In this document: piece after piece, positions 4,183 to 22,168 of the stretch
Position numbering within the stretch: the first letter of the stretch is position 1
How the letters are laid out: every line of letters begins with the position of its first letter
NCBI RefSeq assembly: GCF_013122565.1
Contig: NZ_CP053258.1
Strand: one strand, 5' to 3'
Length of the DNA: 64,000 nt
From: Escherichia coli
GTDB lineage: Bacteria > Pseudomonadota > Gammaproteobacteria > Enterobacterales > Enterobacteriaceae
Translations under genes and position numbers: made by a program
Notes under the pieces: generated by a model
Databases searched by the model: none
Seen by the model: only the letters and a program-made list of their open reading frames with translations
What the model was told of the DNA's origin: nothing

Positions 4183-6207
<2,025 letters not shown>

Positions 6208-17152: not shown

Positions 17153-19342
17153 ATGTTTGTGGAGCATAACCTGATAAAAAATATCAAGATATTCACACTA
17201 GCGTTTACGCTCACCGTGGTACTTATTCAGCTATCCCGTTTTATTTCGCCACTTGCTATTATCCATTCCAGTTATATCTTTCTGGCGTGGATGCCACTGT
17301 GCGTAATGCTGTCAATCTTGTTTATCTTTGGCTGGCGCGGTGTCGTTCCCGTTTTATGCGGAATGTTTTGCACCAATCTGTGGAACTTTCATCTCTCTTT
17401 TTTACAGACTGCGGTCATGCTCGGCAGCCAGACGTTTGTCGTGTTGTGTGCCTGCGCAATATTACGCTGGCAGCTAGGGACGCGTTGGCGTTATGGATTG
17501 ACCAGCCGATATGTCTGGCAACGTCTGTTCTGGCTTGGTTTGGTGACGCCGATCGGCATCAAATGCAGCATGTATCTTGTGGGGAGCTTCTTTGATTTCC
17601 CGCTAAAGATTTCCACCTTTTTCGGCGATGCGGATGCCATTTTCACGGTCGTTGATTTGCTAAGCCTTTTCACCGCGGTGCTGATTTACAACATGCTTTT
17701 CTACTATCTCACTCGCATGATTGTAAGTCCCCACTTTGCGCAGATATTGTGGCGCAGGGATATCGCTCCGTCGTTGGGCAAAGAGAAACGCGCATTTACC
17801 TTAAGCTGGCTGGCAGCGTTAAGCGTGCTGCTACTTCTGTTGTGCACACCTTATGAAAACGACTTTATTGCCGGTTACCTGGTACCCGTTTTCTTCATCA
17901 TCTTTACCCTCGGGGTCGGTAAGCTTCGCTATCCGTTTTTAAATCTCACCTGGGCTGTTTCAACGCTTTGCCTGCTGAATTACAACCAGAACTTTTTACA
18001 AGGGGTGGAAACCGAATATTCGCTGGCATTTATTCTCGCGGTGCTGATTTCCTTTAGCGTTTGCCTGCTCTATATGGTGCGCATTTATCATCGCAGTGAA
18101 TGGCTTAATCGACGCTGGCATTTGCAGGCGCTGACCGATCCGTTAACGCTCCTACCCAACTTTCGTGCGTTGGAACAAGCACCGGAGCAAGAGGTGGGCA
18201 AGAGTTTTTGCTGCCTGCGCATTGATAATCTTGAGTTTATGAGTCGTCATTACGGGTTAATGATGCGCGTTCACTGTATCCGCTCAATTTACCGTACGCT
18301 GCTGCCGTTGATGCAGGAAAACGAAAAGTTGTATCAATTGCCGGGCAGTGAACTGCTGTTAGTGCTGAGCGGGCCGGAAACGGAAGGGCGACTCCAGCAT
18401 ATGGTTAACATCCTGAATAGTCGGCAAATTCACTGGAACAATACCGGGCTGGATATGGGCTATGGTGCTGCCTGGGGGCGTTTTGATGGAAATCAGGAAA
18501 CCCTGCAACCCTTGTTGGGGCAGTTAAGCTGGCTGGCGGAGCAATCCTGCGCACATCATCATGTGCTGGCGCTGGATAGCAGAGAGGAGATGGTTTCCGG
18601 GCAGACCACTAAACAAGTGCTATTGCTGAATACCATTCGCGCGGCGTTAGATCAGGGGGATTTGCTGCTCTACGCCCAGCCCATTCGCAACAAAGAGGGT
18701 GAAGGTTATGATGAGATCCTCGCGCGACTGAAATATGACGGCGGCATTATGACCCCGGATAAGTTTCTGCCCCTTATTGCTCAGTTTAACCTTAGCGCGC
18801 GTTTTGATTTGCAAGTGCTGGAATCCCTGTTGAAGTGGCTTGCAACACACCCTTGCGACAAAAAAGGTCCACGCTTTTCAGTCAATTTAATGCCGCTCAC
18901 GCTGCTGCAAAAGAATATTGCCGGGCGGATTATTCGTCTGTTTAAGCGTTATCACATCTCCCCGCAGGCGGTCATTCTTGAGATCACCGAGGAGCAGGCG
19001 TTTTCTAACGCAGAAAGCAGCATGTACAACATCGAGCAGCTGCATAAGTTTGGTTTCCGGATTGCGATTGATGACTTTGGCACCGGCTATGCCAACTACG
19101 AACGGTTAAAGCGTTTGCAGGCTGATATCATCAAAATTGATGGCGTCTTTGTGAAAGATATCGTCACGAACACGCTGGATGCGATGATTGTGAGATCAAT
19201 TACCGATCTGGCGAAAGCGAAGTCATTGAGTGTGGTCGCGGAGTTTGTCGAGACGCAACAGCAGCAGGCGCTATTGCATAAGCTCGGGGTGCAATATCTG
19301 CAAGGGTATTTGATTGGTCGCCCGCAGCCATTAGCTGATTAA
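17153..19342 (+). CDS. pdeA: Membrane-anchored EAL-domain c-di-GMP phosphodiesterase (MASE1-type sensor)
   Basis: ORF 17093-19342; start placed at MFVEHNLIKN; multiple N-terminal TM helices and C-terminal EAL domain (EITEEQ...DDFGTGYANYERLK). Confidence 0.9.
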   Translation: MFVEHNLIKNIKIFTLAFTLTVVLIQLSRFISPLAIIHSSYIFLAWMPLCVMLSILFIFGWRGVVPVLCGMFCTNLWNFHLSFLQTAVMLGSQTFVVLCACAILRWQLGTRWRYGLTSRYVWQRLFWLGLVTPIGIKCSMYLVGSFFDFPLKISTFFGDADAIFTVVDLLSLFTAVLIYNMLFYYLTRMIVSPHFAQILWRRDIAPSLGKEKRAFTLSWLAALSVLLLLLCTPYENDFIAGYLVPVFFIIFTLGVGKLRYPFLNLTWAVSTLCLLNYNQNFLQGVETEYSLAFILAVLISFSVCLLYMVRIYHRSEWLNRRWHLQALTDPLTLLPNFRALEQAPEQEVGKSFCCLRIDNLEFMSRHYGLMMRVHCIRSIYRTLLPLMQENEKLYQLPGSELLLVLSGPETEGRLQHMVNILNSRQIHWNNTGLDMGYGAAWGRFDGNQETLQPLLGQLSWLAEQSCAHHHVLALDSREEMVSGQTTKQVLLLNTIRAALDQGDLLLYAQPIRNKEGEGYDEILARLKYDGGIMTPDKFLPLIAQFNLSARFDLQVLESLLKWLATHPCDKKGPRFSVNLMPLTLLQKNIAGRIIRLFKRYHISPQAVILEITEEQAFSNAESSMYNIEQLHKFGFRIAIDDFGTGYANYERLKRLQADIIKIDGVFVKDIVTNTLDAMIVRSITDLAKAKSLSVVAEFVETQQQQALLHKLGVQYLQGYLIGRPQPLAD

Positions 19343-19350
19343 CAGGCGTA

Positions 19351-19382
19351 AAAAAGCCGGGGAATTATCCCCGGCTTTTTTA
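19351..19382. terminator. Bidirectional terminator between pdeA and nupC
   Basis: aaaaaagccgggg-aatta-ccccggctttttt, perfect hairpin with A and T tracts on both sides. Confidence 0.7.
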
Positions 19383-19391
19383 TGTATGGTC

Positions 19392-20594
19392 TTACAGCAC
19401 CAGTGCTGCGATTGACGCCGACAGCACACTCACCAGGGTAGAGCCGTAAACCAGTTTCAGACCGAAGCGAGAAACCACGTTACCTTGCTCTTCATTCAGG
19501 CCTTTAACTGCACCTGCGATAATCCCGATTGATGAGAAGTTAGCGAAGGAAACCAGGAACACAGAGATGATGCCTTCAGCACGCGGAGAGAGCGTGGAAG
19601 CAATTTTCTGCAGATCCATCATCGCAACGAACTCGTTGGAAACCAGTTTGGTCGCCATGATACTGCCCACTTGCAGTGCTTCACTGGAAGGAACACCCAT
19701 CACCCATGCAATCGGATAGAAGATGTAGCCCAGGATGCCCTGGAAGGAGATGCTGTAGCCAAACCAGCCAGTCACGGTGGCAAACAGTGCGTTCAGCGCG
19801 GCGATCAGGGCGATAAAGCCAATCAGCATTGCGGCAACGATAATGGCAACTTTGAAACCTGCCAGAATGTATTCACCCAGCATTTCGAAGAAGCTCTGAC
19901 CTTCGTGCAGGTTGGACATCTGAATGTTTTCTTCACTGGCATCAACACGGTAAGGGTTGATCAGCGACAGCACGATAAAGGTGCTGAACATGTTAAGTAC
20001 CAGCGCCGCAACGACATATTTCGGCTCCAGCATGGTCATGTATGCACCAACGATGGACATAGAAACGGTGGACATCGCCGTTGCTGCCATGGTGTACATA
20101 CGATTGCGGGAGATTTTGCCGAGGATATCTTTATAGGCAATAAAGTTTTCAGACTGACCCAGAATCAGGGAGCTGACGGCGTTAAAGGATTCCAGTTTGC
20201 CCATACCGTTGACTTTGGAGAGCAGGAAACCAATTGCGCGGATAATCACCGGCAACACGCGAATGTGTTGGAGAATACCGATCAGTGCAGAGATAAAGAC
20301 GATTGGGCACAGCACTTTCAGGAAGAAGAATGCCAGGCCTTGATCATTCATGCTACCAAAGACGAAGTTAGTCCCTTCGTTGGCAAATCCGAGCAGTTTT
20401 TCGAACATTTCGGAGAAGCCTTTCACGAAGCCTAAACCAACGTCGGAGTTCAGGAAGAACCACGCCAGTAACACTTCGATAACAAGCAGTTGAATAACAT
20501 AACGGATACGAATTTTTTTGCGGTCGCTGCTTACCAGCAGTGCGAGAATCGCAACAACGGCAAGTGCCAGTACAAAATGAAGGACGCGGTCCAT
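19392..20594 (-). CDS. nupC: Nucleoside permease NupC (CNT family)
   Basis: ORF 19392-20633; start placed at [21 protein letters not shown], giving the 400-aa length I recall for NupC. Confidence 0.93.
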
Positions 20595-20860
20595 ATTTGC
20601 TCCAAATATGAGGCAGGTTAAATTTCCGTGCACATTCTATGTAACATGGTTAAGGAAAACGAGATCTGACACACACTATAATGACGTCCTGTGACAAGCT
20701 TCAAAAATAGTGATCTGCCATACATTTCTGCTATGTTGTGTATGGAAGCTGAAAGTTATGTAAATGTGCTAACATTAAACATAACCATAACATTCGAGTC
20801 ATCAATCTTTTCGTAGTCATAATCCTGGTCTATCAGAGAAATCACCACAACCCATTTAAA

Positions 20861-20880
20861 TGAATTTGATAATCATTCTC
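20861..20880 (+). promoter_or_regulatory. Fur box in the mntH promoter
   Basis: tgaatttgataatcattctc resembles the Fur consensus GATAATGATAATCATTATC. Confidence 0.6.
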
Positions 20881-20895
20881 GTTTGGCATAGCATG

Positions 20896-20917
20896 AAACA
20901 TAGCAAAGGCTATGTTT
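20896..20917 (+). promoter_or_regulatory. MntR operator in the mntH promoter
   Basis: Palindrome aaacatagc-aaag-gctatgttt immediately upstream of the mntH start. Confidence 0.65.
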
Positions 20918-20920
20918 TAG

Positions 20921-22168
<1,248 letters not shown>

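Follow-up and report, generated by a model that had tools for sequence, protein, structure and literature searches.

The divergent nupC/mntH intergenic region of Escherichia coli was analyzed within a contiguous stretch of 64,000 nucleotides (hereafter the window, to which coordinates refer unless indicated otherwise); pdeA, nupC, mntH and ypeC lie around the locus. It is shared by 5424 of the 5426 complete E. coli genomes, and in the same number the regulated gene, mntH (412 codons, plus strand, 20930..22168, ATG at 20930), bears the annotation of an Nramp family divalent metal transporter. Immediately 5′ of this gene, the 57 nt at 20861-20917 comprise, by direct reading, a Fur-box-like string, a 15-nt gap gtttggcatagcatg (20881-20895) and the perfect palindrome aaacatagcaaaggctatgttt (20896..20917), which is separated from the mntH ATG by the 12 nt tagaggcacaag (20918-20929). 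All of these distances are exactly those given in the preliminary description of this DNA, which had interpreted the segment as adjacent Fur and MntR operators that form a dual switch for iron and manganese. A Shine-Dalgarno sequence, GAGG (20920..20923, plus strand), lies 6 nt 5′ of the ATG and is kept among the orthologues as either AGAGG or GAGG. The 57 nt are identical to those of K-12 MG1655 (NC_000913.3, 2512719-2512775, complement strand, with the Fur segment at 2512755-2512775 and the palindrome at 2512719-2512740), the strain background used to characterize the mntH promoter. The mntH promoter analyzed here and that of K-12 represent the same locus, with operators that do not differ at any position; over the 146 nt that were compared, there is a single C/T difference, which falls in the OxyR-like region discussed below.

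The remainder of the intergenic DNA and the far side of nupC show several further features. The genes pdeA and nupC are convergent and lie 49 nt apart (19343-19391), and the gap between them contains a perfect GC-rich palindrome (19352-19379) that is flanked by A and T runs and resembles a bidirectional terminator. In MG1655, nupC is followed by a copy of IS186 (IS186C) that the window strain lacks, which shows that the two strains are not the same. The predicted nupC promoter (TTGAAG, 18 nt, TATAGT; minus strand, 20675-20704) is overlapped at its -35 element by a CRP-like site with one mismatch, TGTGAcaagctTCAaA (20690-20705), and two imperfect inverted repeats (20715-20748 and 20751-20795) are located between the nupC and mntH promoters.

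With respect to the Fur box, the string tgaatttgataatcattctc occupies 20861-20880, precisely where the preliminary description had placed it, but the best registers are slightly different, namely 20862-20880 for the 19-bp consensus GATAATGATAATCATTATC, which is matched at 15 of the 19 positions, and 20867-20881 for the 7-1-7 form TGATAATnATTATCA, to which the core TGATAATCATTCTCG shows 12 of 14 matches; the operator as a whole is delimited here at 20861..20881. Shuffled versions of the window yield on average 0.3 matches at the 15/19 level, compared to two observed in the 64 kb, and 0.75 matches per window at the 12/14 level. A motif derived by Fur ChIP-exo in nine E. coli strains, TGAnAATnATTcTCA (PMC10164565), is matched by the window sequence TGATAATCATTCTCg at 12 of 13 positions, and mntH belongs to the core Fur regulon that the same study defined from ChIP-exo and expression data in the nine strains (PMC10164565). 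Furthermore, the information-theory model of Chen et al. (2007) predicts a two-site, 25-bp Fur cluster at mntH, the strongest site of which is 56 nt 5′ of the start codon (PMC2189734); this position maps to 20874, the exact center of the 15-mer at 20867-20881. In the table of that study mntH carries neither a footprint nor a gel-shift flag (PMC2189734), and lacZ fusions reported in the literature also bear on the control of mntH by Fur. The Fur-like character of the string that had been read from the sequence is thus borne out by the classic box, the ChIP-exo motif and the published model site alike.

The palindrome, as delineated by a repeat finder, is a perfect 9-4-9 inverted repeat, AAACATAGC-AAAG-GCTATGTTT, with fully complementary arms of 9 nt at 20896-20904 and 20909-20917 and 4 nt between them. 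Perfect palindromes with arms of at least 9 nt are not rare in the window, where approximately 14 distinct ones were detected, nearly all GC-rich and terminator-like (33 hits with nested registers counted, against 3.7 expected from shuffles), so that the palindrome as such is weak evidence of MntR binding. The specific sequence is a different matter. A search for AAACATAGC-N4-GCTATGTTT allowing up to four mismatches returned no second site in the 64-kb window, and elsewhere, mntS and sitA each have one motif of the MntR type and mntP has two. When a matrix was built from these four sites, with the mntH site excluded, the mntH palindrome ranked first in the 64-kb window with 28.8 bits (z = 6.7), compared to 13.8 bits for the runner-up, which upholds its earlier assignment to MntR. 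Chance origin of the two boxes is rejected by the combination of the shuffle controls, the mismatch scan and the leave-out matrix. The half-site string itself, when searched for in the full-text literature, matched unrelated primers only.

A promoter scan identified only one sigma-70-like promoter on the plus strand of the intergenic region, with a predicted -35 element TTGATA (20866..20871) and a predicted -10 element TAGCAT (20889..20894) that are 17 nt apart. The Fur box of this gene, which encodes an Nramp Mn/Fe importer, takes in the -35 hexamer together with most of the spacer, and the palindrome starts 1 nt past the -10 element, such that the two boxes would bracket the predicted promoter. 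On this predicted geometry, transcription should start at approximately 20900-20902, that is, inside the palindrome. Further upstream, and ending 10 nt before the -35 element, is an OxyR-like site, ATAa-n7-CTAT-n7-ATcA-n7-CcAT (20819..20855, plus strand), which matches 13 of the 20 specified positions of ATAGnTnnnAnCTAT-n7-ATAGnTnnnAnCTAT; this is the best score in the window but is shared by 19 other sites, and the match is not significant alone. Most orthologous loci contain 14-16 matches of the 20 in this block. Given that OxyR directly activates mntH according to the literature, the candidate site is in agreement both with the reported activation and with a position adjoining the -35 element.

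Comparative analysis of 80 MntH orthologue loci fetched from approximately 25 genera of Enterobacteriaceae, with the alignment and statistics computed over 81 sequences, reveals a steep gradient of conservation. The mean information content per column, for which 2 bits is the maximum, is 0.34 in the far-upstream intergenic DNA, 1.09 in the OxyR-like block, 1.78 in the Fur box, 1.68 in the -10 hexamer and 1.92 in the MntR palindrome. The left arm of the palindrome, AAACATAGC, is invariant in all 81 sequences and the AAAG spacer is found in 80 of them; the right arm GCTATGTTT is confined to Escherichia, Citrobacter, Salmonella and Kluyvera, with GCTATATTT or GCTATATCT elsewhere. The Fur core TGATAATCATTCTCA is shared by 55 of the 81 sequences. 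The -35 hexamer TTGATA is likewise invariant (81/81), and the -10 element conforms to TAnnnT in every orthologue, with variable inner bases (TAGCAT, TAGCTT, TAATAT, TAACAT, TAGTTT, TAGCCT) and a spacer of 16 or 17 nt. This combination of an invariant -35, a -10 reduced to T-A-n-n-n-T and a 16/17-nt spacer is the pattern that would be expected of a real promoter, in line with the sequence-based prediction. Depending on the genus, 14 or 13 nt separate the Fur core from the palindrome, and such a change of 1 nt argues against obligatory helical phasing of the two boxes, in keeping with reports that the two repressors act independently. Within E. coli, the 57 nt are identical in 3346 of 5233 matching records. 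In three variant alleles that were fetched, the changes are found mainly in the 15-nt gap, along with individual substitutions in the Fur box, one of which, C to A, brings the box closer to the consensus; the palindrome is unchanged.

Comparison with related promoters extends this picture. In the Salmonella enterica mntH promoter (Kehres et al., 2002), the order of elements is the same (OxyR-like block, Fur box, -10, MntR palindrome) and the palindrome is identical, but the Fur core is the perfect 7-1-7 sequence TGATAATCATTATCA and the half-site AAACATAGC is present in the -10 region as a complete third copy. Among plasmids, a blastn search yielded the sitA promoter of pAPEC-O2-ColV (minus strand, 1258-1201 of the fetched segment; for the sitABCD promoter, see Ikeda et al., 2005), in which the Fur 15-mer TGATAATTATTTTCA is followed after 21 nt by AAACATAGC-cgtt-GCTATGTTT. 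Thus, upstream of another manganese importer, a Fur box again precedes a palindrome with identical 9-nt arms. The details differ, with CGTT in place of AAAG between the arms, 21 rather than 14 nt from the Fur core to the palindrome, and 32 rather than 12 nt from the end of the palindrome to the ATG; no sigma-70-like promoter was detected at sitA at the thresholds of the promoter scan. In fetched segments of K-12, MntR-type sites were found across the mntS/rybA start (AGATATAGCACAGGCTATATTA, 1255-1276 of the segment) and in two copies 5′ of mntP (GAATTTAGCCAAAGCTATGTTT and AGACATAGCTTAGGCTATATTA; 766-787 and 806-827 of the segment); for the MntR sites of these genes, see Waters et al. (2011). 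Each of these sites has 3-4 mismatches to the mntH palindrome, where approximately 0.008 matches per 2.2 kb are expected by chance; the mismatches fall in the outer arm positions, and the core ATAGC-N4-GCTAT is common to all, with A/T-rich flanks. The two mntP sites are 40 nt apart (start to start) and lie at least 135 nt 5′ of the yybP-ykoY aptamer, far 5′ of the leader, and this pair has been reported to activate rather than repress.

An element resembling a third MntR half-site overlaps the -10 hexamer in the window as well (20887-20892). It reads CATAGC in E. coli, AAACATAAC in some Citrobacter and ATAGC in most genera, and the Salmonella copy, with all nine bases, is located 12 nt 5′ of the left arm. 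A requirement for ATAGC at this position as an MntR half-site in all genera is rejected by the -10 variants TAATAT, TAACAT and TAGTTT, which break ATAGC and keep TAnnnT, and the element may be nothing other than the -10 itself.

Taken together, these observations indicate with high confidence that the region is the regulatory region of E. coli mntH, a promoter with three inputs, Fur, MntR and OxyR. MntR and Fur are both stated in reviews to repress E. coli mntH through separate promoter sites (PMC8632737), and reviews also assign MntR, Fur and OxyR sites of their own in the promoter and describe the two repressors as independent in action; in one study, a plasmid-borne PmntH-gfp reporter was unresponsive to manganese (PMC9806134). 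Comparison with the characterized promoter, made through secondary sources together with the identity to K-12 and the regulon and footprint evidence, is in agreement with the assignments that had been made from the bare sequence. Both the iron and the manganese part of the proposed switch stand, and it is the restriction to two inputs that appears incomplete, given the OxyR-like third input; the predicted promoter bracketed by the boxes and a leader riboswitch reported in the literature (see below) are further elements absent from that reading. The mntH operators are real, strongly conserved and already known, and as such they are a valid positive control for the window, as had been proposed: two characterized operators were located to the base, which implies that motif reading from raw sequence in this window is trustworthy at the level of operators.

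The regulation of mntH by Fur, MntR and OxyR is taken from the literature, and from it and the layout of the sites we infer a steric mechanism. Fur loaded with Fe2+ would occupy the 19-bp box over the -35 element and most of the spacer and thereby exclude RNA polymerase from the promoter. MntR loaded with Mn2+, a dimer of the DtxR family, would occupy the inverted repeat of 22 bp, which starts 1 nt past the -10 element and covers the predicted +1, and would prevent the open complex from forming or the polymerase from escaping the promoter. Either repressor alone would suffice for repression, and the two boxes would not have to lie on one side of the helix; OxyR, bound at the site adjoining the -35 element, would mediate induction by peroxide. 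Occlusion by Fur at -35 and by MntR at -10/+1, with activation by OxyR from upstream, is the best-supported mechanism, and under it manganese import would be allowed only if iron and manganese are both scarce, or under peroxide stress.

The principal alternative concerns the level at which the palindrome operates. Reviews describe, with reference to Shi, Zhao and Kong (2014), a terminator-like, Mn2+-responsive OFF riboswitch in the mntH leader, and the palindrome, followed by UUUU, could, if transcribed from an upstream start, form a 9-bp hairpin that would be the terminator-like structure of this riboswitch instead of, or in addition to, serving as the MntR operator. Published transcription start data bear directly on this possibility. 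In K-12, two weak mntH starts map to 20744 and 20783 (plus strand; 5′UTRs of 186 and 147 nt, with 11 and 5 reads, respectively; PMC3415461), and the flanking 51-mer maps to 20733-20783. No start near 20901 is listed in the MG1655 TSS-seq table, which was obtained from cells grown with manganese, MnCl2 being part of the trace-element mix of the medium (PMC3415461); therefore, the proximal mntH promoter should have been repressed under these conditions. A start for Klebsiella mntH is absent from the TSS supplement that was examined, and the region around the upstream starts lacks conservation between genera (0.34 bits per column).

Transcripts from the two weak starts would include the whole palindrome, the only terminator-like hairpin between the promoter and the ATG, and the fully transcribed hairpin has a predicted energy of -14 kcal/mol (z = -5.2); moreover, the copy at sitA passes a scan for terminator-like structures. 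The mntH palindrome itself, however, fails that scan, and initiation at the predicted +1 of 20900-20902, within the left arm, would leave a stem of only 5 bp in transcripts from the proximal promoter. The pattern of substitutions also gives no support to a conserved RNA structure: in the 26 distinct sequences, three of the nine pairs are lost (in 3, 6 and 18 sequences, respectively), and compensatory changes, which would restore pairing, are absent. The leader matches no Rfam family, so that a known RNA family at this position is rejected; in particular, the yybP-ykoY model (RF00080) had no match in 20500-21100 at E <= 1 in the same E-value search that recovers the mntP aptamer with 41.6 bits, a control that is missed at the gathering threshold (45). 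Finally, the same arms occur at mntP, at least 135 nt 5′ of the riboswitch aptamer, and at sitA, reportedly devoid of a riboswitch, and both occurrences fit a sequence that is read by a protein. We consider it unlikely, therefore, that the palindrome functions as RNA, although a layer of control at the RNA level is a live, secondary possibility. In its dual-use form, which we likewise regard as doubtful, the palindrome would be the MntR operator as DNA and a manganese-responsive leader hairpin in the transcripts that start at 20744 or 20783, and the half-site-like copy over the -10 element might extend MntR occupancy across the -10. If so, manganese would act through a single sequence on initiation as well as on elongation.

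Apart from the operator function that we favor, conservation of the segment could be sought in a protein. According to the RefSeq annotation, a small ORF of 29 codons, ypeD (20860..20949, plus strand), extends over the Fur box, the -10 element, the MntR operator, the Shine-Dalgarno sequence, as well as the first 20 nt of mntH, and it has been reported from ribosome profiling, with homologues claimed in Salmonella and Citrobacter (bioRxiv 10.1101/2021.07.02.450978). Annotation, reported translation and claimed homologues would all be compatible with 20860-20949 being conserved through selection on the YpeD protein rather than on the operators, but we find this explanation highly improbable. Of 84 loci, only 12 maintain the frame over 29 codons; it spans 8-11 codons in most genera as well as in some E. 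coli alleles, with a different frame in Enterobacter, and in three orthologues ACG naturally replaces the ATG. Inside both boxes, all three codon positions are equally invariant, and the conserved peptide blocks, MNLIIIL and KHSKGYV, result simply from translating the Fur box and the MntR operator in this frame. Furthermore, the ATG at 20860 is located 6 nt 5′ of the predicted -35 element, and therefore a transcript from an upstream start would be required for its translation; transcripts from the weak starts at 20744 and 20783 would also include this start codon. Coding constraint on ypeD as the cause of conservation is thus rejected, the frame not being kept across the loci, and the apparent conservation of ypeD is, judging from the alignment, probably that of the operators. 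Translation of ypeD may nevertheless be real; given that the ORF sits on the operators, its sequence conservation is unusable as evidence of peptide function.

The notion that the Fur-box string is no more than an AT-rich -35 element and spacer with a fortuitous match to the consensus and no bound repressor could draw on the double role of TTGATA as the -35 hexamer and on the other 15/19 match in the window, but is scarcely credible in view of the conservation of 15-20 nt that include the spacer, a part of the promoter that is not ordinarily conserved, of variants that shift towards the Fur consensus (ATTATC in Salmonella and in E. coli AH21E028), and of the membership of mntH in the core Fur regulon as defined by ChIP-exo (PMC10164565).

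Two additional observations pertain to the surroundings of the operators. A start with 13 reads that has been assigned to nupC (K-12 version 2 coordinate 2510716; PMC3415461) maps to 20942 on the minus strand, which is 12 nt inside mntH and on the opposite strand, and a transcript initiated there would run antisense through both mntH operators. The other matches to the Fur consensus in the window are GATAAAGATATTCATGATG (15/19, 4240-4258) and TGATAAAAAATATCA (12/14, 17172-17186), the latter inside the start of the pdeA ORF.
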